NCBI GenBank assembly: GCA_951406725.2
Contig: OX597842.1
Location: 17,980,001 to 18,044,000 of the forward strand
Direction: 5' to 3'
DNA: 64,000 nucleotides
Origin: Octopus vulgaris
Lineage: Eukaryota
Each line of letters starts with the position of its first letter. Position 1 is the first letter of the stretch. The notes under the pieces were generated by a model that worked only from the letters and a program-made list of their open reading frames with translations, ran no database searches and was not told the DNA's origin. The position numbers were made by a program, and so were the translations under genes. This document shows, one piece after another, positions 22,001-64,000 of this stretch.

Positions 22001-25000
22001 ATGTATGTATCTATGTATGTGTGTGTGTGCATGTATGTATGTATGTGTGTATGTATGTATGTATGTATGTATGTATGTATGTATATATGTATGTATGTAT
22101 GTAGGTACATGCACACCCCTATACCGTGCATGTATACTAACATCACTTCTTTACTCATGTGAGACATGGAACCTTTACAAACGTCAGGTAAGGGTTCTTG
22201 AAGACTTTCATCAGAGATGTCTGAGACACATTCTGAATGTTGGCTGGACCTTAAAAACTCCAGACACACAGGGCTTCAGGAAAGCTGATGTCCAGAGGAT
22301 TGAGGCGACGATGCATAAGCACTGGTTACGTTTGACTGGACACCTTATTAGAATGAAGGATTGCAGGATCCCTAAACAGATGTTCTACGGGGAAATTCTT
22401 TCCTGCGATTTATGGACTGTGTCAAGTCCTCATTAAAGTCGTATGATATGAAGGAGACAGACTGGGAATGCAATGCCAGTCATTGCCACAGCTGGAGGAA
22501 GTAGGTTAAGGAAGGGGTCGGCACCTTTAAAAGAGCATGTATTCAGTATGAAGAATTTTAGCGAGCTGCTCGAAAACGCATGGCTGGTGTAGTGAATGGG
22601 GAAAGCTTGGTTAGCAAAGTTTGAAGTCGTGTATGCTTGTCAAGAGCAGGACTCATTAGCCACCAACGGAGCTGCAAATGCAAAATATAAGTTAGTCCTA
22701 GAGTGCACAATGTTCCTGAAGGTCAGCAATGTTCTTCCTCGGTCACGAGTGGACAGCCATCCTCATGTATCATCATGTCTATACACACACACACACACAC
22801 ATGTATATAAATGAATATATATACGTATATAGATGTATATATATATATATATATGTGTGTGTGTGTATGTATATATGTATATATACATACATATATATAT
22901 ATATGTATATCTATATATATATATATATATATATATATATATATATATATATATATATATATATATATATATATATATATATATATATGTATGTATGTAT
23001 GTATATATGTATGTATGTATGTATATATATATATATAAATATATATGTATACATATAATGAGGGATTATATGTTAGCCTTTGGAAGGGATAGATGTATTG
23101 ATGAAATACTGATTCTACCATATAAGTGTATGTATATATATATGTATATGTATATATATATATATATATATATATATATATATATATATATATATATATA
23201 TATATTTAGATATATGTATTTATGTATGTATGTAAGTATGTATACTTGTATATTTTTCAGGAATGGAGACAACGATTCAGTACCATTCGATTCCTCTTCT
23301 GCTGCCAGCTTTGACACTTTTGCTTTTCGTGACTCTCGTAACTGCCGGAGAACCAACGAATAGAGATGGTCTCTTCAGAAAAACCACAACATCAAAATGC
23401 TTAATTGATCAGAATAAAACTACAAAAACCGCTTCATCTCGTTTGGAATGTGCGAGTCTGTGTCTTTCCCGCGATGAGTGCCAATATTTTAGCTATTGTA
23501 ATGGCCCGTGTTATATGCATCGATCGCTTTACAACGAAGAAATTAAAGATCAGGATTGCACGTGTTTATCGTATATTTTACTTTCCGGAAACAGTAAGTA
23601 ATTCACAATTTTCTGGTATATTTTTTCTAATTTCTGTATTATATTTTCATCATTATCCCAATTGTTTTACACACACACACACACACACACACACACACAC
23701 ACACACACACACACAAACACAAAATCGGACACACACATATATGTATGTATGTATTCTATCATTCTATTATTTGTTTCAGTCATTTGTGGCCATGCTGGAG
23801 CACCGCCTTTAGTCGAGCAAGTCGACCCCAGGATTTATTCTTTGTAAGCCTAGTACTTATTCTATCGGTCCCTTTTGCCGATCTGCTAAGCTACGGGTGA
23901 CATAAAGGCACCAGCATTGGTTGTTGAGTGATGTTAGTGGCACAAACACAATCACGCAAACACACACACACACACACACACACATATATATATATATATA
24001 TATATATATATATACATATACATATATACGACGGGCTTCTTTCAGTTTCCATCTACCAAATACACTCACAAGGCTTTGGTCGGCCCGAGGTTATAGCAGA
24101 AAACACTTGCCCAAGGTGAAACGCAGTGGGACTGAACCTGGAACCATGTGGTTGGTAAGCAATCTACTTACCACACAGCCACTCCTGCGGCTATATATAT
24201 TTATTATTATTCAGTTTATTTCAGGATTTCTTGCCAATAGACAACGAACCGGTTTCTAACCTAAATCCAGGCTCCTTCACTGGAATTGCAACATCAACAA
24301 CAGGGTATTTTTGTTTGTAAGTTTGTATGTATGTTATGTATGTATGTATCTATGCGCAGATTTGTATGTTTTATGTATGTATGCTCGCAAAGAAACGAAC
24401 AAGGGACAACAATCAATGCAAACTAACAAACTGTCCCATCCGTGACATAGATTTATGCCAACGGGTAAATGTTGTGAATAGAATACAATGTAACAAACGC
24501 AACAAGTTCTATGTGGGTAGCACAACAAAACCGTTACACGTCCGCATCAAAGAACATCTGAATACGATAGCCTCCTCTTTCAGATAAGATGCTGGAACAC
24601 CGACAAAAGCATAACAGTCACAATTGAGGCCAGTGAAAGAAATGTGGGTAATTTAAGAATTAGGGAAGCTATACTCACACGTAGACTCATACACGAGACA
24701 TTGCCTGGTGAGGTTTCGGTCAAAGAATCTTACCAGTTCCAAGCGAATCTCAGAGCTTCACTTCGTCGATGGCAACGTGGTCACGCGGTCACTCAAACTT
24801 AGAACCGCAAAAGGCTGTCAGTTATTTCACCATTGCGTATCAACGTTTTGAGCTCACTGTAAATTCTAAGAAATCTCAGTTCTTCGCCTAATCAATCCCG
24901 AATTCTGCCCTTCTGCACTTTAACATCATAATTTCGGGCACACCACTGGAACGAGTTAATCACTTTGCATGCCTTAGAAGTGTGCTTTCCACCAAACACA

Positions 25001-28000
25001 ATCCTGAGCAAGATGTGGAACGAGGAATCGAACCGGTTCACTCAGCTTTCTTTGAAATAAATAAATGTCTTTCCTGAAAAATCCTGGAAACTTCTGGAAT
25101 GCACCTCCTTTTTCTTTAAGTTCCTATTGGTGTCACAAAAAGTTTACACAGATATGACCGTCATCAGTTGAGGCCCGACCGTCTGCTAAATTAAATGCGC
25201 CTAAGCGTAAGCGGCCCTTATCAATGGGAGAAATCCAGTCGTAAACAGATGATTTAAACAGCGATGAAGAAGTGTTTTTCTGATTTTCTTTCATCATCAA
25301 TTGAAGCAGATGATGTTGAAAACGATGTTTTAGATAATACAGAAAAAAATAATGCTTCAACTAGCTCTGGATGGAAAAAGTGTACCGATTCTTCTCCATT
25401 TGTTTAAGACCAACAATTATTTTAGTTTTTGTGCTTAATTTAATGAAAATAAATATAAAAATTAGCTTTATGAAAAAGAGATTTTTTCGATTATTGTCCG
25501 TTTGTCACACACATTCATGCAACCCTTTCCCGCCGTTTAAGGGTTAACATCTTGTTTGTATACTTACATTATTTATTGCTGATCCAGGTACAAGCTGGCA
25601 GAAAGTATTTGAGATGACCCCAAATTCATTTAAGAAAAGCCCTATTTATTTTTACTGGGAAGACGTGCCTATTGAAAAGGTAATGAATTTTTAGAATTTC
25701 GAGATGATTCTCATTGAATAACCAATCTACATATTTGTTGCTGTTTTACAATAATTACTAGCGTTTTCTTTTAAATGTTTAATTTCAGCTTCTGATGTTT
25801 GTTTCATTTTTAAAATCTATCTTTTTTTGTTAGCAAGTTTTTTTGGCGGGGTTTCACGATAGAACTAGATCCAGACTAATTTTCCTTCTAAATTTCAATG
25901 GAATATTGTGCAGCGTTTTCATTTGGCGGCAAGAGTGTTGCTATGAAATATACTTGACGCATAGAAACCTATTCCTCTCGTGTTTATATCTCCTTTTTTT
26001 CTGTTTCTATTTGATCCTTTATTCTCCCCCCGTGGTCCGGGATCATGGGGCATGATTTCCCCATGCTTTTTCGTTGCAATTTTACCCCGGATCGGGCTGC
26101 AACCCCATTTGATCCTTCGTTACGCTGTCGTACTGTCAAGCGTCTCTCCGCTTTGTCATCCCTCTTTCTGGATTGTCAGCAAGTCCTTCCCTGCAGTCAG
26201 TATCTGAGGAACTTCAACCGTGTTTCGTGGTCTGCTACCACAACAGCTCCTTTATAGGATCCAGTTAGCTCAAGACGTTATCAGAAGGAACCACGTCCGG
26301 TTTCGGCCCCTACTCCTCTACCGTTTTGACGTGGCGAGGGCCCCCTCTTTCGGAGGTGTCTTCAGCTCTGGTGTTGGGTGCATGTCTTCTTTCTTCTTCT
26401 TTCTTCTGTTCCCTGGACTCTTCGATGTATCGTCAGCGAGTGTCAGCGGGCGACTGTCTCGCATTTTGAAAGGAAGAGGTGAAAGGATGAAATTTAGGTC
26501 GAGATTTGTGAATATGTAGATGGGGTGGCAAAAATAAGAATGCTTTTCCCTCGAGACGAACTTCAGAACAGGATATAAAGTTACACCCCACCAGGGCCAA
26601 AATATCATGATGGACATAACTACACGCGTACCTACCCCCAACACCTGGCCAGAAACTACTATCCCTCTGACATCCGCTCCACACGTCCATGAAAAATGCT
26701 GTTCAAATGTCCCGCTTCTTGGTGTGACGTCACTTCCCCTTCCGGTCCTGACGTCTCCCTTCATTCCTCCCCAGAATATCAATGTGACATTGTTGATGGG
26801 AGAGTGATTCTTGTTGTTTTTATCTTTTGTTTTTGTCCTGGATTTTGTCAGGGTCTTCTACTTCCCACAGATGCAACGAAACTTTTTACAAAGACTCCGA
26901 AATCCCGACTCATTATTTATTAATCCGATTCTCTGTCTCATAAATCCAAACTCTTTCTCGCCATCTTAATCTTGCACTTCATTCGCTACTTTGTATTTCA
27001 TCCTCTCACTTTCACTCCCTCTCTCTCTCCTTTCCCTCCGTCTCCTCCTTTTTCACAACTTCTCTAATCTTCTTCTCTTTTACTCTGAAACTCTCTCATA
27101 CTCTTCCTCCACTTTTCTTTATATCTCCTTCTCATCCCTCCTACTCTCTTCCTATATCACAACCCAGTCCCCTTTCTCTTTCCTCCCTTATTCTTTTAGA
27201 TTCTTTACTGATCCGAGTCAACTTTCTGTTTTCAGGTGAAATTTCAGTTGAACGGAACACTTCTAAATCTCACGTTTATTTTCGACGGCAGAGGGACGAC
27301 TTCTACATCGTGGTTCCAACAAGATAAACTCATTTCAGGTCCAACTGGCTCTCTTTCATCAAACTATACGTTCAATAACAAGTATGTATATATTATCTTC
27401 TTATTCATTATTTACCTCTTTAATGATTTAATGATAATAAAAATAATGATTTCTCACATAGGTATAGAATCACATATTTTAAGGCAAGGTGAAGTCGATT
27501 TTGTTACTTTATTATTGGGTTGGCCGTTTTTAAAATTTTAATTTTTTAAAAGGTTTAATATAAAATAACTAATTAATCAATATTGTATTCACCCTTATTG
27601 TTTACAACTTCTTCCCAACGTTCAACAAGATTTTCAATACCGCGTTGGTAGAAATCACACGACTTCGACTCAAAAAATTAATCCAACCAAGCTCTCAATA
27701 CTGCATCAGTATTGAACGAAACTCCGCGCATAGCATTTGAAAGAGGTCGAAAGAGGTGGAAATCCGTTGGTGCCAAATCAGGAGAGTACGGCGTGTTTGG
27801 CAGCACTTCCCAGCCATGCGTTTGAATGGCTTCCTTGGTCATATTGGCGATATGAGAGCGAGTGTTGTCGTGCAGCAGAAGAACTCCATGCTGACGATTA
27901 GGTCTTTTCTCTTGAATAGCCGTGTTGTCGTTCCATCTGTTGAACATAGAGTTCCGCGTTGACCGTTTGGTTCCGTTCAAGCAATTCGTAATGGATAATC

Positions 28001-42786: not shown

Positions 42787-43237
42787 TATATATGAAAAAA
42801 CAAGTAAAAAATAGAAAATGCTAAAATAATTTTATAGTGAACATTTCAGTACCGGTTTCGGTCATTTTGAGACCTTTTCAACTGTAACGATTAAATAATT
42901 AAATTTAGAAAAATTAGAAGAAAAGTTTTTTAAAAGAATATTTCTATAGTAGTGTTCAGATTTAAGTGGCATTCTGCCTTTCTCTGACTCCCTTGTTTGC
43001 ACTTGTGTGTTCGAGGTACCTCGAACACACAAGTGCAAACAAGGGAGTCAGAGAAGGGCAGAATGCCACTTAAATCTGAACACTACTATAGAAATATTCT
43101 TTAAAAAAACTTTTCTTCTAATTTTTCTAAATTTAATTATTTAATCGTTACAGTTGAAAAGGTCTCAAAATGACCGAAACCGGTACTGAAATGTTCACTA
43201 TAAAATTATTTTAGCATTTTCTATTTTTTACTTGTTT

Positions 43238-43248
<11 letters not shown>
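42787..43248. repeat. Spacer-less near-perfect palindrome (~230-bp arms, centre 43017/43018)
   Basis: ..GTGTGTTCGAGGT|ACCTCGAACACAC..; arms match with only about 2 mismatches. Confidence 0.95.
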
Positions 43249-43268
<20 letters not shown>

Positions 43269-43437
43269 GGCGCAGGAGTGGCTGTGTGGTAAGTAGCTTG
43301 TTTACCAACCATAAGGTTCCAGGTTCATTCCCACCACCTTGAACCTTGGGCAAGTTACTTCTACTATAGCCTCGGTTCGGCCAAATCCTTGTGAGTTGAT
43401 TTGGTAGACGGAAACTGAAAGAAGCCCGTCGTATATT

Positions 43438-43499
<62 letters not shown>

Positions 43500-46394
43500 C
43501 ATCAAAATAGAAACAAAATTTCTTGTTGCATTAAAATAGAAACGATATTTCTTTCCTGAGAGATCTTACTGCATTCAATCAAGCCCTATGCATAGCACTT
43601 CTGGAAACTCACCTCAACCCTGATATAGAGGACGCAGCAGTACACATACAAAACTACGCCATACTGCGAACAGACAGAAGGGAAATAAGTCATGATGGAG
43701 TTGCTCTATACATCCGAGATGACCTCACACCCCAGGTCTTGATGACATACTCAAATTCGGTATGTGACACATTAATTGTATACATCAGACAACATAATAT
43801 AGTCATATGCAATACATATTGCCCACCGGATGCCCCAAATCACATAGGCAAGTTTGAAGATTGCCTCACAAGAATGAAAGAAATCCTAATGAATCTGGAA
43901 CACCACGTGACCATATTTCTTATGGGCGATTTCAACTTCTCCAACTTCAAATGGCCCGAAGGTCACATACTCTCAGGAATGAATCATTGCAAGCAAGTAC
44001 AGGTGGTGTCCCTGCTCAACCTCACCAATGCCTTATTCATGGAGCAAGTTGTACTCAAGCCAACTAGGGTAAATAACATTCTGGATCTCTGCTTCACGAA
44101 CAATATGGACATCATTCATGATGTGAAAGCAGATTGGAAATCGATCCAAAAAGAGATCCTCAGAGAGAACTGGCCGGAATGTCTATCCACACCAGACATT
44201 GACATGAAACTAAAATGTTTCATGTCTTCTGTGCAAGCCGTATGCCAGAAATATGTCCCAGAGCACAAGGCCAAAACAAATAGGAGCAAGATTCCAAGAG
44301 ACAGGAAGATCCTCATGAGACGACGGACGAAGGTTGCAAATCGTCTCAACCAACATCCCAAAAGTAGCGAAACGTCCCGCCTAAAAACAACACTGATGGA
44401 GATCGAAAAAGGTTGCAACAATCCTATGTGAAGGAGAAAGCAGGCAAAGAAGCCTGGGTTATAAAAAACATTAAATCAAATCCAAAGGCCTTCTTTCATT
44501 ACGAGAAAGAAACAGTCTCAGTGCACTACAAAATAGAACCCCTCCTCCAAAAGGATGGCTCCCTCACAGACAATCCAACTATGATCAGTGAGATGCTGAA
44601 TGACCAGTTCAAAAGTGTCTTTACCACCCCGTTGGAACACAGACAAGTGAACGAACCAGCGGACTTCTTTGCCGCCTCACCTATAACCAGCGAGGCAGTT
44701 ACAATAGTATGTATTGAGATTAGCGAAAAAGATGTCCTACTAGCCATAGATGAAGTGGACACAAACTCAGCTGCTGGTCCAGACGGTTTCCCAGCCATCC
44801 TCCTCAAAGCGTGTAAGCATGCCCTGGCAAAACCCCTCAAGATTCTCTTCCAGAGCTTTCTTGCGAATGGCAAACTGCCAAGCAAGCTGAGGGAAGGAAT
44901 AATATGCCCAATACATAAAGGGGGAAGTAGAGCAGATGCCAAAAACTATAGGCCTATCTCTCTAACTTCACACATCAGCAAAGTCATAGAACGGATAGTC
45001 AGAAAGAAACTAATCGCATTCCTTGAGGAAAATAACTTGCTGAGTAATACCCAGCATGGTTTTCGACCAGGTAGGAGCTGCCTGACCCAGCTCTTACAGC
45101 ATTATGACTGGGTGTTGGGGAGTTACTCAACAAATCAAATGTGGACGTAATCTACCTTGATTTTGCAAAAGCTTTTGACAAGGTGGATCATGGTATGATA
45201 TGCCACAAACTACGTGACCTCGGCATAGCTGGAAAACTTGGAGTGAGGTTGCATGACTTCCTGAAAGATAGGAGTCAGGCAGTAGTGGTTAATGGAGCCG
45301 CCTCTATGAACACACAAATAGTGAGTGGTGTTCCACAGGGCACTCACTTGGGACCACTGCTTTTTATAGTGGCCCTCTCAGATATGCCCTCAAATGCCCG
45401 GATAGCCACTCTGGTAAGTTATGCAGACGATACGAAAGTCTCGCAGAAAATACAGAACCCTAGCGATGTTGCACACCTGCAGCAGGATTTGGACTCAATC
45501 TACAGATGGGCTGAGGATAATAATATGCAGTTTAATGCTGAAAAATTCCAGGCCCTGCGCTACCAGCATCCAAAACTGAATATTAAACTTACAGGATACA
45601 CCGGTCCACAGGGAATTTCAATTCCAGAGCCTAAGTCTGTGAGGGACCTGGATATCGACATGAGTGATGATACCTCTTTCCAAGTGCACATTACCAGGAT
45701 GGCGACAAAGTGCAGACGGCTGGCTGGGTGGATCCTAAGAACATTCAGAACCAGAGATAAGGAAACCATGATGGTCCTCTGACGGACATTTGTCCTCAGT
45801 CGCCTGGATTACTGCTCACAGCTATGGTCATCCACCAGTGTAAAATTAACAGCGGACCTTGAAGCAATCCAGAGAAGATTCACAAAGAAGATCGTCTCTT
45901 TGCAACAGCTCAGCTACTGGGAAAGGTTGAAACAGCTAAGACTCTACTCCCTGGACAGAAGACGGGAGAGGTATGCAGTAATAAATGTCTGGAAGATCCT
46001 GGAATGAATTGTGCCAAATGTTGGCATTGTAAGCTACACCAATGCTAGAATGGGACGACACTGCATAGTGCAAAAGATCCCAGCAATGCCATCACGCTTC
46101 AGGACCAGCTTCTGCAACAGCCTGGGTTTCAAGGGCCCATAGCTTTTTAATATTCTCCCAAAGAGTCTGAGGAACTTGCACAAAGTAGATGTATCGGTTT
46201 TTAAATCAAAGCTGGACATCTTCCTGTCAAGAGTCCCAGATGAACCTACCTCACGGCAAGAGGTGCAAATGAGAGTAGCTGTATCAAACTCCATTCTTCA
46301 CCAAGTGCCACATATTAGACGAGGTTCGTCGTAATAACAGTGTAGCACATAACGGCGGTGCATCAGCATGGCCGCAGCTCTGAGCTGAAACTAG

Positions 46395-46395
<1 letters not shown>
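43500..46395 (+). mobile_element. Defective LINE (CR1/L2/Jockey-group) ORF2: APE endonuclease + reverse transcriptase
   Basis: MGDFNF, NILDLCFTN (APE); AGPDG, NYRPISLTS, QHGFRPGRSC, YLDFAKAFDKVDH, GVPQG, YADD (RT); frameshifts and stops. Confidence 0.93.
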
Positions 46396-46466
<71 letters not shown>

Positions 46467-46940
46467 GTATGTATGTGTATATGTTTTTGTGTCTGTGTTT
46501 GTCCCCCCAACATCGCTTGACAACCGATGCTGGTGTGTTTACATCCCCGTCACTTAGCGGTTCGGCAAAAGAGTCCGATAGAATAAGTACTGGGCTTGCA
46601 AAGAATAAGTCCCGGGGCCGATTTGCTTGACTAAAGGCGGTGCTCCAGCATGGCCGCAGTCAAATTACTGAAACAAGTAAAAGAGATAAAAGAAAATAGA
46701 GAGAAAGTTCTAAGCGTGTAATTCAGAAACGCAGTCACACAGGGGGAAGGCCCTATGTCTGTGAAATATGAGGGACTTCATTTATCACAAGAAGTCATTT
46801 AAAATCTCACAAACAGACCCACACAGGAGGGAGACCATTTTGTTGTGAGATTTGCGGGAAATCTTTCTCTCAAACTTCCAGCCTTTCATTTCACCGAAAA
46901 TTACAGACCGGAGAAAAGCCGGGAAATATGCTGGAAATCA

Positions 46941-48185
46941 TACTCTTTGACTCTTTTACCTGTTTCAGTCATTTGACTGTGGCCATGCTGGAGCACCACC
47001 TTTAGTCGAGCAAATCGACCCCAGGACTTATTCTTTGTAAGCCCAGTACTTATTCTATAGGTCTCTTTTGCCGAACCGCTAAGTTTACTCTTTTACTTGT
47101 TTCAGTCATTTGACTGCGGCCATGCTGGAGCACCGCCTTTAGTCGAGCAAATCGACCCCGGGACTTATTCTTTGTAAGCCTAGTACTTATTCTATAGGTC
47201 TCTTTTGCCGAACCGCTAAGTTTACTCTTTTACTTGTTTCAGTCATTTGACTGCGGCCATGCTGGAGCACCGCCTTTAGTCGAGCAAATCGACCCGGGAC
47301 TTATTCTTTTGTAAGCCTAGTACTTATTCTATCGGTCTCTTTTGCCGAACCGCTAAGTTTACTCTTATACTTGTTTCAGTCATTTGACTGCGGCCATGCT
47401 GGAGCACCGCCTTTAGTCGGGCAAATCGACCCCGGGACTTATTCTTTGTAAGCCTAGTACTTATTCTATAGGTCTCTTTTGCCGAACCGCTAAGTTTACT
47501 CTTTTACTTGTTTCAGTCATTTGACTGCGGCCATGCTGGAGCACCGCCTTTAGTCGAGCAAATCGACCCCGGGACTTATTCTTTTGTAAGCCTAGTACTT
47601 ATTCTATCGGTCTCTTTTGCCGAACCGCTAAGTTTACTCTTATACTTGTTTCAGTCATTTGACTGCGGCCATGCTGGAGCACCGCCTTTAGTCGGGCAAA
47701 TCGACCCCCAGGACTTATTCTTTGGAAGCCCAGTACTTATTCTATCGGTCTCTTTTGCCGAACCGCTAAGTTTACTCTTTTACTTGTTTCAGTCATTTGA
47801 CTGCGGCCATGCTGGAGCACCGCCTTTAGTCGGGCAAATCGACCCCCAGGACTTATTCTTTGGAAGCCCAGTACTTTTTCTATAGGTCTCTTTTGCCGAA
47901 CCGCTAAGTTTACTCTTTTACTTGTTTCAGTCATTTGACTGCGGCCATGCTGGAGCACCGCCTTTAGTCGGGCAAATCGACCCCCAGGACTTATTCTTTG
48001 GAAGCCTACTACTTTTTCTATAGGTCTCTTTTGCCGAACCGCTAAGTTTACTCTTATACTTGTTTCAGTCATTTGACTGCGGCCATGCTGGAGCACTGCC
48101 TTTAGTCGAGCAACTCGACCCCCAGGACTTATTCTTTGGAAGCCTAGTACTTATTCTATAGGTCTCTTTTGCCGAAACGCTAAGT
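46941..48185 (-). repeat. Tandem array of 9 x ~138-bp SINE 3' tail units
   Basis: TTTACTCTTTTACTTGTTTCAGTCATTTGACTGCGGCCATGCTGGAGCACC..GCCGAACCGCTAAG repeated; the last unit continues into a full SINE. Confidence 0.95.
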
Positions 48186-48272
48186 TATGGAAGACGTAAA
48201 CACACCAGCATCGGTTGTCAAGCGATGTTGGGGGGACAAACACAGACACACAAACACACACACACACGCACG

Positions 48273-48303
<31 letters not shown>

Positions 48304-50275
48304 ACACATATATATATATATACATATATACGACGAGCTTCTTTAAGTTTCCGTCTACCAAATCCACTCACAAGGTTTTGGTCGGCCCGAGGCCATAATA
48401 GAAGACACTTGCCCAATGTGCCACGCAGTGGGACTGAACCTGGAACCATGTGGTTGGTAAGCAAGCTACTTACCACAATCACACCTGCGCCTATATATAT
48501 ATATACACACACATATATATACATGATGGGCTTCTTTCAGTTTTCGTCTACCAAATCCAACCATAAGGCTTTGGTCGGCCCGAGGCTATAGTAGAAGACA
48601 CTTGCCCAAGATGCCATGCAGTGGGAATGAACCTGGAACGTTGTGGTTGGTAAGCAAGCTACTTATCTCACAGCCACTCCTGCGCCTATAAAAATTCTTT
48701 ATGTAAGTTGAAAATTCTTATCTTGTAATTCACAAAAGAGCACACACAAAAGGGAGACCATTTTGTTGTGAGATATGCGGGAAATTATTCATGAAAAACA
48801 GTACTTTAGCCATTCACAGACAAAGACACATCAGAGAGATGCTTTTAAATTGAAACATCTTCTGATGAAGGACCCTTTTACCTTCCACTTTCCTCCTGCA
48901 CTCTCTCGTTTTCTCAACAAACTAACTTGAAATTTTGATGGAAGGTTTATTTTTGAACCCTTTTTTTTACCATATTTCTGTTGCCTTTTCTTTCAATTAA
49001 TTTTGAAAAAATTGAAGATTTCAATAAAATAACTTTCTTAATTATGAAGTTGATGTGTGGAGCATAAAATAATATGAAATTTTAAGGGAATGTTTTCATT
49101 TAGATCACTTTAACCCTTTCGTTACCATATTCTGTTGAAGAACACTGTCTTTGTTTAAATTAATTTTGAAAATAAGGTATAAGTTAGTAAAATAACTTTG
49201 TCCCTATTCAGATGGTGTTTGGAACATAAATTAACATATATTAAACATGGATTCGTTTGTTTAAATTATCATCAGAAATAAAGTATTTCCCACAAATTTC
49301 ACAAAGACAAGGGAGTTCTCTGGTGTGAGTTCTTTTGTGAATAACAAGATTTGATTTCCGAGTAAAGGATTTCTCACAACAGAACGTAACGGCAGACGTA
49401 ATACGGGTACGCATTTCGCCCTGCGTGCAAATGTTTCTGCCAGCTCGCCGATTTTAGCGGACGAAATACCAATTTCTTCACTACCCAAAAAGGGCTGAAC
49501 ACAGAGGGGACAAACAAAAACAGACAAAGGGACTAAGTCGATTATATCGATCCCAGTGCGTTACTGGTACTTAATTTATCGACCCCGAAAGGATGAAAGG
49601 CAAAGCCGACCTCGGCGGAATTTGAACATAGAACATAGCATCAGACGAAATACCTATTTCTTCACTACCCAAAAGGGGCTAAACACAGAGGGGACAAACA
49701 AGGACAGACAAAGGGATTAAGTCGATTATATCGATCCCAGTGCGTAACTGGTACTTAATTTATCGACCCCGAAAGGATGAAAGGCAAAGCCGACCTCGGC
49801 AGAATTTGAACTCAGAACGTAGCCACAGATGAAATATCGCAAAGTATTTCGCCCTGAGTGCTAACGATTCAACCAGCTCACACAGAGAGAGGGTGGGTTG
49901 AATGGTTTTATGGATCTCAATTCTTAAAATGTTTGTAGAAGTTCTTTTAATCGTTGGTTCGGTCAGTTGCTAAATAAGATTCCTTAAGGTTATGTCACCC
50001 CTTTAACATTAATGTTGTGTGTTGTAGCTGATAGAGAGAAGAGAAGTGTTTCAGAAATATGACAGACGAGGCTTTTTCTCAGATTAAAATGTTTTATTTA
50101 AGAACAATAAAATAAATAAATGAGTCACAGAGGAAAAATTACAACAGCAAAGAAACAACATAGAATAATCACTCTTTGAATATTACATTGGGAAAGCTAA
50201 TACATAAACTTGTCTTTGTGTGCAACAGAATATTTCAGAAAATATATTAAGCATAAGAAGGGAAAAAAGATGCGA

Positions 50276-50317
<42 letters not shown>

Positions 50318-50613
50318 TAAAATCAAAATGAGGAGGAAATATTGGATGTTAATTTGATAACATCAGTTTTACCACCAGTGGTCGAGCGTATAAAAAACTA
50401 AGATTCGGTAATTAGTATTTCATACATATATATATATATAACAGTTATCGCCATACTAATATGGCATTCTTATAAAAATAAGAAAAAAGCTGTCCGCTTA
50501 TTAGCTCCATGAGGCCATCGCCTTAAGTTAGCTATTTGATACACAAACTGTATTATTTTCCGGGAACGCTGCCGCTGTTCTCTTTTAGAGAGACTTAGTT
50601 ATTTTAATATTTC

Positions 50614-50723
<110 letters not shown>

Positions 50724-50886
50724 ATGTGTGTATGAGTATGTGTGTGTGTATGTGTGTATATATATATGTGTGTGTGTATGTGTGTGTATGTATATATATA
50801 TATATGTATATATATATATACATATATATGTATATGTGTATATATATACATATATATATATATATATGTATGTATGTATATATATA

Positions 50887-50976
<90 letters not shown>

Positions 50977-51391
50977 CGTATGTATATATATATATACATG
51001 TGTGTGATAAATGTCTTGCATTTCCGAGTTTTAAAAACGGTGTATGCTGGTGAAAGATAAACTTTGAAATAAGGAATTTAACGATACATCAGTTATTAAA
51101 TTGTAAAAGGTGCGAGTGAGTCAGCATAGGGATCAGTCAAAAACACTACAACGGACAGGTCACTTATTAGATTCTGACCGTGTGAGAAGGTTTTTATCGT
51201 ACCCTAACGAGTTAGAAATAAATACTTGTAATAATATATTAGTGTAAGTTTAAAGGATAATTCCATCCCAGCAAATTGTTATTTTTTTTTTACATGTATT
51301 ACCATGTACCAAAATATTTCAATTCAATTCCGATAAAGTAGTGTCAACAATCGTGAAGAATATGTGCAAAAAAGAAAGGTTCTGCAATCTA

Positions 51392-51452
<61 letters not shown>

Positions 51453-51467
51453 ATCTATACATACATA

Positions 51468-51517
<50 letters not shown>

Positions 51518-52227
51518 ACATATATATATACACACACATATATACATATACTTACACACACATATATATATATATAGACATATATATATACATACACACA
51601 CACACACATATATAAATATATATATATATACAATGATTATTAGATAGCAGAACCTATATATATATACATATATATATACAATTTAAAAATAGGATAAAAT
51701 CTTTATAAGAATTTATTAAGTAGTTAGTGTGAAAAACCTCATAAGAGAAAAATCCATCAATTTTTTTCTTAATTAAATTCATTTATATTGAGGGCATTAC
51801 TAGATATAAATGCCACACGCTTGGAGGGACTACTAAAGTCAAAACTACCGAAATAAATAAAGACATTTAATTTGGTAATTTTTACTTTAAGAGTCCTTCC
51901 TGACGTGTGGCATTTATGTATAATAATGCCCTCAATATATATATGAATATAAATACAAATATAAATATAAATATAAATATAAATATAAATAAATAACTAT
52001 ATAAATATATTCAAAATGTAACCACGTGTGAATCGTTGGCGATTTTCTTCCTCCGTCTCTTTTTCCATTCGAGTTTCCTCTGTTTCTGAAGAAGGAAGAG
52101 CGTTGCTCGAAACGTTAAACCATCTTCCTTTCTTCCCTGAGCGTCTGCTAATACTTTACATGAACCACGTCCTCGCGTTGTTTCTTTTTGTATTTTTTGT
52201 GTTTGTTCTTCTTTTGGGGATTTACCA

Positions 52228-52285
<58 letters not shown>

Positions 52286-53047
52286 TGTATGTATGTATGT
52301 ATGTATGTATGTATAATTATCACGAGATGATATTCATAAAATAAAAGTGAGTTCAATAGTGTAAGTTTTGGTGAACTTTGTGTTTTTTGTTTTGCTTTTC
52401 GTCTACATTTACTGTTTATTTTACATGTATTTGGCATATCTACTCCAAGTTTGGGGAGAGTCATTTTCTTTTTGTGCCTTTTTATGTAACACACTCACCG
52501 GTAAAATATCCACTTATTTCTTATTTTTATTTTCCTAAAATTTTCGTTGCGTCTTGCAACCTTTTCAATAGTCTTGACTCTGTCCGTTATTTACACTGCG
52601 TTCCCTTTTGTTTGTTTGTGCTCATGTGTGTGGGGCAGTGTGTGTGTGTGAGTGTGTGTAAGTCAGTGTGTGTCTGTGCCTATACATGCATGCGTGTATA
52701 AACAGACACATATGGAGACACGATCCACACATATAAAGATGCACATCCATACATGCAATCATGGTACGTAGTTGCATCACACACACACACACAGACATGC
52801 ACACACAAGGAGACAGAGGTGCATACATATACAAACACACGCTTACACACACACATACATAGGAAATACACACACACGGACATGCAAGCACATAAATATG
52901 CAGGATACATACATACAGATACATACACATACATACATATATACATATGCACACACAAACATATATACATACATTCAAACACACACAGACATACATACAT
53001 ATATACATACATACATGCATACATACATACATACATACATACATACA

Positions 53048-53079
<32 letters not shown>

Positions 53080-54334
53080 CATACATACACACACTGCCCC
53101 ACACACATGAGCACAAACAAACAAAAGGGCAGGCAGTGTAAATAACGGACAGAGTCAAGACTATTGAAAAGGTTGCAAGACGCAACGAAAATTTTAGGAA
53201 GGAAAATAAAAATAAGAAAAAAGTGGAAATTTTCCCGGTGAGTGTGTTATAAGGCACAAAAAGAAAATGACTCTCCGCAGACACAACAGAACATGCTTCA
53301 ACACACGAACTCATATAAAGAATCTTGCAAACCAAATCCAAAAACGAAATACTCCAAGTTTGTTTAGAAAAATCTTGCTTGTGTCTTACACTTTTTTTCG
53401 TAATTTATTGCCTTCACAGTGTTTACCGTTTTAAAAGATTAAATTAGAAAATTGGACGAAACAGAAAACACAAATGAAAAAATTGAAAATAAAAAAGAGA
53501 GAAGAAAAAAGAGAAAAAAGCAAAATAATTCACCACTTTAGGCTATTGGGGCACGCCAGTATGCTTGCCGCGTTGCCATGGGTGATGGCGAGGCTGAGGC
53601 ACTGGAACAGCCAAGCGCCGCCACGAGCCTCGCCAGTTGCCTCTGCTGGGCGAATTGCCAGTGAGTTGCCAGAGAAGACAGGAAACTCGCAGTTGGTGGA
53701 CCGACTCCACCAAACGTCTGGAATGCCACCGGATGGAAAAAATGTAGATGGCCGACTGATCGCGAGTTTCCTGTCTTCAATGGCAACTCATTAGCAATTC
53801 GCGTACATTTTTCTCACATCTGGATTTTATTAATTATTACCAATGTCTTAAAATTTTGAAATATTTTTTCTTTAACCGTTCTTCTCTCACAGAACTTGTG
53901 TCTTTTCTCTTTCATGCTTATTTCAGCACAAACCTTCCGTCCGCCTGAAACCGTTTCACACTCGTATACTTTCCCACACATCCATCACTCCCTCCTCATT
54001 CCTCTCCCCTTTTCATCTCCTTCTCACTCGTGCACACTTCTACCTCCTCATCCACACTTTCTTCTCACACTCTTAACGACAACTCACACACACACAGACA
54101 CCATCATCTCGCATACCCAACGTATCTACGCCACCAAAGTTCTGAATTTGATCACTTCTAGACACATGCATATCCCAAGTAACCGTACACACACACACAC
54201 ACACACACACCTTCCTATATGTCCATTTTCAGATGAGGTTCCATTTCTATACTTGCAGACAGACACCCATCCCTCTTCCCTTATTAACTCCATCCTCATT
54301 GAACTGCATTTCATCCGGTTCCTAACACTTTGTC

Positions 54335-54404
<70 letters not shown>

Positions 54405-54686
54405 TTCTTCTTTCTAACTCCTATAAGCCTTTCCTTTCCTTCAGATGAAGGCCTCACCTCTGAAATCTTGAGTTTTTCTCTTCTATTAAAGCATTAAGCT
54501 AACAGAGTATCTGTTGAACGCTGTCCTGTCTATGATATCCTTTATTATTATTCAAAGCATTTACACTGTACATCAATGTCTGTCTGTCCGTGTGTATGTA
54601 TGTATGTATGTATGTATGTATGTATGTATGTATGTATGTATGTATGTATGTATGTATGTATGTATGTATGTATGTATGTATGTATG

Positions 54687-54718
<32 letters not shown>

Positions 54719-54772
54719 TGTGTGTGTGTATGTATGTATTTATGTATGTTTGTATGTATTTATGTATGTATG

Positions 54773-54805
<33 letters not shown>

Positions 54806-54862
54806 GTCTCTGCGTCTATCTATTTATCTATCTATCTATCTATCTATCTATCTGTCTGTCTT

Positions 54863-54902
<40 letters not shown>

Positions 54903-54920
54903 TCTATATGTCTGTCTGTG

Positions 54921-55034
<114 letters not shown>

Positions 55035-55058
55035 TCTGTCTGTCTATCTATCTATCTA

Positions 55059-55091
<33 letters not shown>

Positions 55092-55108
55092 GTCTATCTA
55101 TCTATCTA

Positions 55109-63602
<8,494 letters not shown>

Positions 63603-64000
63603 CTAAGTATACAAACAAGATGTTAACCCTTAAACGGCGGGAAAGTGTTGCAGGAATGTCTGTGACAAACGGACAATAATCGAAATAATCTCTTTTTCAT
63701 AAAGCTAATTTTTATATTCATTTTCATTAAATTAAGCACAAAAACTAAAATAATTGTTGGTCTTAAACAAATGGAGAAGAATCGGTGCACTTTTTCCATC
63801 CAGAGCTAGTTGAAGCATTATTTTTTCTGTATTATCTAAAACATCATTTTCAACATCATCTGAGTCATTTGATACATAACATACATACCTACTTACAGAC
63901 AAAAATACCCTGTTGTTGATGTTGCAATTCCAGTGAAAGAGCCTGGATTTAGGTTAGAAACCGGTTCGTTCTCTATTGGCAAGAAATCCTGAAATAAACT

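Follow-up and report, generated by a model that had tools for sequence, protein, structure and literature searches.

The 64,000-nucleotide stretch of Octopus vulgaris DNA described here (assembly GCA_951406725.2, contig OX597842.1, positions 17,980,001–18,044,000 of the forward strand; hereafter the window, whose own numbering is used throughout) carries three related genes in the order A(−) B(+) C(−), together with a large inverted duplication in which B and C stand tail-to-tail, their stop codons (34,796 and 55,218) separated by 20.4 kb. Delimited by self-BLAST of the microsatellite-masked window and collinear chaining, the duplication consists of 18 inverted blocks, from an outermost pair at 24,213–24,304/64,000–63,909 to an innermost one at 40,945–41,822/49,638–48,761; an extra block past 41,822 is a short interspersed element (SINE)-like repeat and was excluded before divergence was counted. 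The masked self-BLAST chain bears out the arm and spacer coordinates of an original prediction made from the letters alone, and the gene order and both palindromes that it described as a chain of inverted duplications are recovered, including the smaller, 8-kb palindrome at 8,635–16,642. Its picture of the arms as reverse complements holds in part: the inverted repeat is real, but the arms (17.6 and 15.2 kb) share only 8,082 aligned columns, about 96% identical at aligned sites, with the remainder made of microsatellite or one-arm insertions. Similarly, the spacer called unique does lie outside the arms, but holds zinc-finger remnants, a long interspersed element (LINE), SINE-like repeats and a hairpin (Table 1). 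The window is free of N.

Table 1. Position of the genes, palindromes and repeats of the locus, in window coordinates
Feature	Position	Strand	Details
Gene A, older paralogue	1,111-9,380	-	start exon at 9,380
A exons after start exon	6,122-6,451; 3,131-3,222; 1,740-1,886; 1,111-1,220	-	
Smaller palindrome	8,635-16,642	.	arms ~8,635-11,881 and 13,752-16,642
Gene B	16,087-34,796	+	6 coding exons, 247-aa open frame, by homology
B exons	16,087-16,099; 23,261-23,593; 25,588-25,679; 27,236-27,381; 31,085-31,194; 34,747-34,796	+	GT-AG
Left arm	24,213-41,822	+	chain of inverted blocks
Left-arm-only insertion	24,305-25,295	+	GIY-YIG fragment, PF01541 E 2.6e-4, below cut-off
Mariner-type transposon remnant, left arm only	27,510-28,801	-	PF01359, E 7.5e-21
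Left arm-spacer junction, 41,822/41,823	41,756-41,856	.	bridged by a contig of run X6
Spacer	41,823-48,760	.	6,938 bp
C2H2 zinc-finger remnants	41,823-42,100; 46,701-46,945; 48,691-48,760		in spacer; ~600 bp, dead array
Loop-free hairpin	42,786-43,249	.	232-nt arms, 99% complementary
Broken LINE, endonuclease + reverse transcriptase	43,531-46,390, ends approximate	+	PF14529, PF00078
Right arm	48,761->64,000	-	chain of inverted blocks; extends past window end
Gene C, last 4 coding exons	55,218-63,602	-	131 aa visible, open frame
C exons	63,511-63,602; 61,403-61,548; 60,257-60,366; 55,218-55,267	-	first two exons beyond window

The unit duplicated in inverted orientation measures at least 15 kb and contains one gene, both copies of which have kept open frames in which all splice sites are GT-AG. 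The product of B is predicted to comprise a hydrophobic leader, a PAN/apple domain and a C-terminal β domain. Its closest protein is Octopus sinensis LOC118768100 (95% across the PAN exon), and all 15 family matches of the protein search come from O. sinensis or O. bimaculoides, annotated as ‘uncharacterised’ or ‘Apple domain-containing’. Five family genes (LOC118768097-101) lie together on one 21.3-Mb contig of O. sinensis; in two of them the PAN exon is of the B type, at 96% and 91%, and in another of the A type, at 89%.

AlphaFold models of database relatives, rather than of B or C themselves, display a leader helix, a PAN/apple domain and a mostly β domain (P0005, predicted local distance difference test (pLDDT) 86; C-terminal domain of P0014, pLDDT 92). 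The P0005 model has both the fold and the cysteine pattern of a PAN/apple domain and superposes on the N-domain of HGF with a Z-score of 9.2 and a root-mean-square deviation (rmsd) of 2.1 over 78 aligned residues, while PF00024 is found in 10 of the 24 family members at E up to 0.1, with B itself under the Pfam cut-off. Similarity of the C-terminal domain to fibrinogen-like domains is weak, though it extends over the whole domain: ANGPTL3 aligns at 114 of 140 residues (Z 5.2, rmsd 4.3) and H-ficolin gives a Z-score of 4.7. Foldseek probabilities are 0.92–0.93 with E-values of 0.04–0.12, there being no Foldseek match at E up to 0.001, and the best VIA-align Z-score (6.3) concerns a partial sheet only; neither result shows the fold to be novel. 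A template-modelling (TM) score of 0.76 links the domain to an automatically named cluster of the ESM Atlas. None of the 24 family members matches PF00147, and in the models the domain appears at most weakly fibrinogen-like; since TLDc domains score like fibrinogen-like ones, it is not filed among the FReDs. FReDs have conserved disulfides, and the C-terminal domains of B and C contain no cysteine.

Profile alignment shows the C-terminal domain to have homologues in amphioxus and bivalve proteins (hhalign probability 97.7, E 2e-12), where the domain has no name. This invertebrate domain, found in amphioxus, bivalve and cnidarian proteins (P0029, P0037 and P0048), shares a homologous first half with the octopus one and is often fused to PAN, with TM scores of 0.70–0.79 for its ESM Atlas clusters; its second half, which contains cysteines, has no counterpart in the octopus form in the alignment, and the octopus genes are expanded in clusters.

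B and C share 91 of their 131 comparable residues and differ at 60 of 396 coding nucleotides, a divergence about 3.6 times that of the non-coding DNA of the arms, where 324 of 7,689 aligned sites differ (4.2%; identity 95.8%) and the differences are fairly evenly spread (3.0–5.2% per intron or downstream flank). Non-synonymous differences number approximately 51, against 11.7 expected from the non-coding transition and transversion rates of the arms, in effect an intron clock (Poisson P ~2e-17); 4 codons are purely synonymous, against 4.0 synonymous differences expected. By codon position the differences number 25/23/12, and a single one of 32 fourfold sites is changed. In the two middle exons 25/146 and 26/104 sites are changed, and no halo of divergence surrounds them, the intron within 150 bp differing at 18 of 465 sites (5/187 + 13/278). 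When the 11 other members are used to classify alignment columns, differences between B and C fall in 24 of the 40 family-variable columns versus 8 of the 53 conserved ones (p = 3e-5), and a comparison of B and C with O. sinensis P0034 is star-like, with 17 sites at which all three differ. The C-terminal domains have thus diverged about four times faster than neutral DNA by amino-acid-changing point mutations, concentrated in family-wide hypervariable segments; because these segments outrun the surrounding DNA to this extent, the copies have been driven apart rather than kept alike, and the sequences argue strongly for diversifying selection after the duplication. In such a comparison the arms serve as a local neutral clock, which makes selection on B and C unusually clear.

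Large gene-bearing palindromes are described on the mammalian X and Y chromosomes, where, according to PMC8981503 and 10.1101/800185, ongoing conversion holds the arms above 99% identity (median 99.95%). The octopus repeat shares with these its gene-bearing inverted arms of more than 10 kb, a spacer on the kilobase scale and signs of instability at the arm–spacer boundary; it differs in that its arms are 95.8% identical, contain private insertions and carry genes that diverge instead of being homogenised. On arm identity it is not a conversion-maintained palindrome of the mammalian type: identity above 99% is absent, 4.2% of sites differ and six insertions are confined to one arm, four of them (991, 1,292, 675 and 862 bp) to the left and two (416 and 1,134 bp) to the right. 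Two of the six are recognisable transposon remnants, the one with the GIY-YIG fragment being presumably Penelope-like. Ongoing homogenisation between the large arms, which the original prediction had envisaged, is not supported, in view of the fairly even divergence, the one-arm insertions and the excess in exons; given the level of substitution and the private transposon insertions, the arms have evolved largely independently since the duplication. The lone hint of a conversion tract is an identical run of 214 bp, compared with a permutation mean of 148 (p = 0.03). On the strand of B the arm substitutions are free of A-to-G bias (46 A/G versus 44 G/A). A sequence of about 650 bp is present twice in the left arm, its second copy lying at 33.4–34.1 kb.

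An older palindrome with continuing arm-to-arm conversion, in which selection protects islands of exon divergence, as in the Teshima–Innan model outlined in PMC2588116, would explain why the divergence peaks are confined to exons; the 214-bp run, a pathway-averaged synonymous count above expectation and the homogenising event that did happen elsewhere in the cluster (the 8-kb palindrome, see below) would also suit it. Under that model, however, linked silent sites should rise with the peak, and both the fourfold sites and the adjacent intron stand at background; six large one-arm insertions persist, some of them in introns flanking the divergent exons, and background identity is 96% rather than above 99%. 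We regard this alternative as unlikely. Less likely still is that the exons owe their divergence to relaxed constraint, or to import through ectopic conversion with distant family members as donors. Import finds some encouragement in the 13 of 44 differing codons with two or three changes, in the many paralogues that could act as donors and in the chimeric appearance of O. sinensis gene model P0001, but donors about 22% divergent would have brought silent changes with them, whereas silent sites are at background, and relative to A the changes derived in B and in C are interleaved, without tracts. Relaxed constraint, for its part, is unable to exceed the neutral rate fourfold.

That the duplication exists in the genome is indicated by contigs from independent public runs, of which four out of 24 (X4, X6, X7 and X8) were compared with 1,621 bases around the left junction; the contig figures are those among the matches listed. 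A 101-nt contig of X6 bridges this junction with 67 and 34 letters on either side, and contigs of X7 (three) and X8 (one) give indirect support by covering 41,823 at 34–42 letters from their ends, reaching 41,826. Several junction contigs in one run may be alleles or further copies. Should the assembly instead have joined two divergent haplotypes in inverted orientation, B and C would be alleles under balancing selection. Highly variable recognition genes can carry very divergent alleles, and X4, where no junction contig is listed and one arm contig (within 40,490–42,110) ends exactly at 41,822, could be taken to favour such a misjoin. On the X4 result, the left junction may be polymorphic or lineage-restricted. 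A misjoin would predict shallower arms, and the opposite is seen: in each of the four runs arm contigs have 1.7–3.1 times the depth of spacer contigs (191.6/62.2, 219.5/123.7, 97.3/36.3 and 125.3/75.4), with the reservation that contig depth is no copy number. Moreover, the 4.2% divergence of the arms is far above the O. vulgaris heterozygosity of 1.22% reported in 10.1101/2023.05.16.540928, the window has no N, and O. sinensis has two genes with the B-type PAN exon beside an A-type gene. The X6 bridge and the five-gene cluster of O. sinensis make a misjoin unlikely; this least probable of the alternatives is already largely refuted, and the view that the locus is no joining of haplotypes stands.

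The inner breakpoints lie within a dead C2H2 zinc-finger array, whose degenerate fingers occur in the spacer and in the inner ends of both arms and are broken up in the spacer by SINE-like repeats, the LINE, a 138-bp tandem array and the hairpin. On the right the spacer fingers pass uninterrupted into the arm; on the left, the junction places the last finger of the array, in an inverted copy, next to a forward finger, and the same forward finger starts again about 500 bp farther out in each arm. This abutment and the repeated forward finger mean that the strand was switched at least twice at the breakpoints, and the inverted duplication would have arisen by fold-back or template switching. Most of the spacer length is accounted for by the LINE (~2.9 kb) and SINE-like repeats. 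Its tandem array, at 46,950–48,186, has nine 138-bp copies (96%) of a unit that is part of a common SINE-like repeat, and for the hairpin, which occurs once in the window, a fragile site, the end structure of a transposon and a read artefact are all conceivable.

Different behaviour is suggested by the smaller palindrome, which holds the ATG exons of A (9,380, −) and B (16,087, +) and their upstream DNA in head-to-head arrangement. Of the 2,250 sites aligned between its arms, 118 are changed (5.2%), against 17–31% in the alignable blocks of the A and B gene bodies (~22%, or 210/944, in the largest). Because of this discrepancy, one 5′ region must have replaced the other, or given rise to it, well after the gene bodies had separated, either by conversion or by re-duplication, which are indistinguishable here. 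By these counts the 8-kb palindrome is the sole real sign of homogenisation in the locus, and concerns regulatory DNA. Gene model P0001, in which a B-type PAN exon is joined to an A-like tail, is at best a hint of module shuffling and possibly an annotation error. The suggestion that the layout homogenises or shuffles variants accordingly survives for the small palindrome and, through P0001, as a hint of shuffling, and is unsupported for the large one. DNA at 12,527–13,385, in the spacer of the small palindrome, is similar to the inner arms of the large palindrome (570 bp, three pairings, ~9–10% divergent), which points either to an older block duplicated in common or to a repeat of medium copy number.

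The locus is best read as a germ-line inverted segmental duplication within an expanding octopus gene cluster, whose arms have evolved largely independently and whose C-terminal domains have diverged under selection, and to this reading we assign a probability of roughly 0.7. Structurally it is an ordinary inverted segmental duplication, of a type already known in multigene clusters. The encoded protein is probably secreted and probably functions in recognition: it would use variable segments mounted on a conserved scaffold to bind a variable partner, such as a glycan of pathogens or prey or a marker of gametes or of self, and selection would favour a different specificity in each copy. The inverted layout would then mainly be the way in which the cluster grows, with 5′ regulatory DNA now and then transferred from one paralogue to another, for example in the 8-kb A/B palindrome, and with coding regions not kept alike.

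Several points weigh against this reading. The exon models of A, B and C come from homology to family proteins. The strong selection result depends on the intron clock, because the pathway-averaged synonymous changes also exceed expectation (8.8 versus 4.0; p = 0.02) and the classical ratio of non-synonymous to synonymous rates (dN/dS) is only 1.54; a direct test of pN against pS, made on an earlier and partly wrong exon set, was not significant. The read-run evidence covers the left junction only, and none of the contigs listed for X4 crosses it, a gap that by itself proves nothing. The fibrinogen-like match (Z 4.6–5.2) is weak and no better than that of unrelated entries. Finally, binding is a presumed function, to which roles in venom or between gametes are alternatives.

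Among molluscan proteins, the cargo of the duplication resembles, by analogy, diversified recognition families such as the FREPs, of which it is not a member. Like FREPs and other molluscan FReDs, it belongs to an expanded and diversified set of secreted proteins, and PAN/apple modules are found in one Biomphalaria FREP and in some Lottia FReDs, as described in PMC7588048. In contrast to FREPs, the 24 octopus members lack a match to PF00147, no immunoglobulin superfamily (IgSF) domain was found in the family, whose architecture is PAN plus one β domain, and that domain is a cysteine-free module of 130 residues; the diversification shown is in the germ line, between paralogues. A further parallel is offered by conotoxin and lysin-like families, in which exons outpace introns after duplication around a conserved scaffold and leader. 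The octopus genes seem alike in their fast exons, conserved scaffold and leader, and no relation in sequence or fold to those families was found.

A more ambitious and distinctly tentative proposal is that the family constitutes an undescribed, octopus-expanded recognition repertoire of secreted proteins built from PAN and a reduced fibrinogen-like domain, with four hypervariable segments on a fixed scaffold. Nested inversions would copy promoters and 5′ modules between paralogues and exchange PAN and C-terminal modules, and the binding domain would be diversified by selection. If true, cephalopods would possess a system that diversifies in the germ line and serves immunity, self-recognition or the targeting of prey. 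Homogenised 5′ ends and diversified candidate binding domains within a single locus make it a compact case for how inverted clusters separate regulation from specificity. To our knowledge, few cephalopod effectors or receptors have been recognised. No paper on this family or locus was found in a search that excluded most subscription journals, and the main text of the skin-mucus proteome PMC11431876 does not mention the family. Although unannotated, the family is a strong candidate for an arms-race role in immunity, gamete or self recognition or interaction with prey, and the palindrome itself is of less note than this strongly selected, undescribed secreted family.

The original prediction also proposed that this layout could yield long double-stranded RNA (dsRNA), on which ADAR editing or small-RNA production might act. 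In coleoids A-to-I editing is widespread and targets repeats, according to PMC9068888, and the transcripts of convergent genes with 96% complementary arms could pair. A hairpin would nevertheless require at least 14 kb of transcription past the stop codon of B, through at least six AATAAA motifs whose position is conserved in both arms. The palindrome is also unnecessary for editing, in that the predicted pre-mRNA of B already contains inverted SINE-like pairs (160–190 bp, 86%). A role of the palindrome in dsRNA formation, ADAR editing or small-RNA production is accordingly an unsupported conjecture, possible in principle and rather improbable.

Gene A has an exon of 147 nt (1,740–1,886) where B and C have 146, and the resulting frameshift marks either a pseudogene or a sequence error. 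Its last exon was not found in the window, whose first 619 bases, where that exon would be expected, are occupied by a 38-bp minisatellite of at least 16 copies that runs off the left end. A last coding exon at 31,542–31,585 was rejected, the C-termini of the family mapping to 34,747–34,796 and 55,218–55,267, and a hammerhead-like motif near 31,400 was dropped as not above chance (3 matches, 11/100 shuffles; fold z 0.74); Rfam gave 0 matches at gathering threshold. At 31,085–31,091, B has two AG acceptors six bases apart, and the existence of family proteins with and without the two residues concerned suggests that they are alternative acceptors. In C, 58,095–58,186 is a partial duplicate of the end of the second-last exon with its donor site, split from the original by a 2-kb TATG expansion. 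Elsewhere in the family, P0016 (O. sinensis LOC118764386) is annotated with two tandem C-terminal domains, and O. bimaculoides has more distant family clusters, with LOC106876620-25 on one 97.8-Mb contig.

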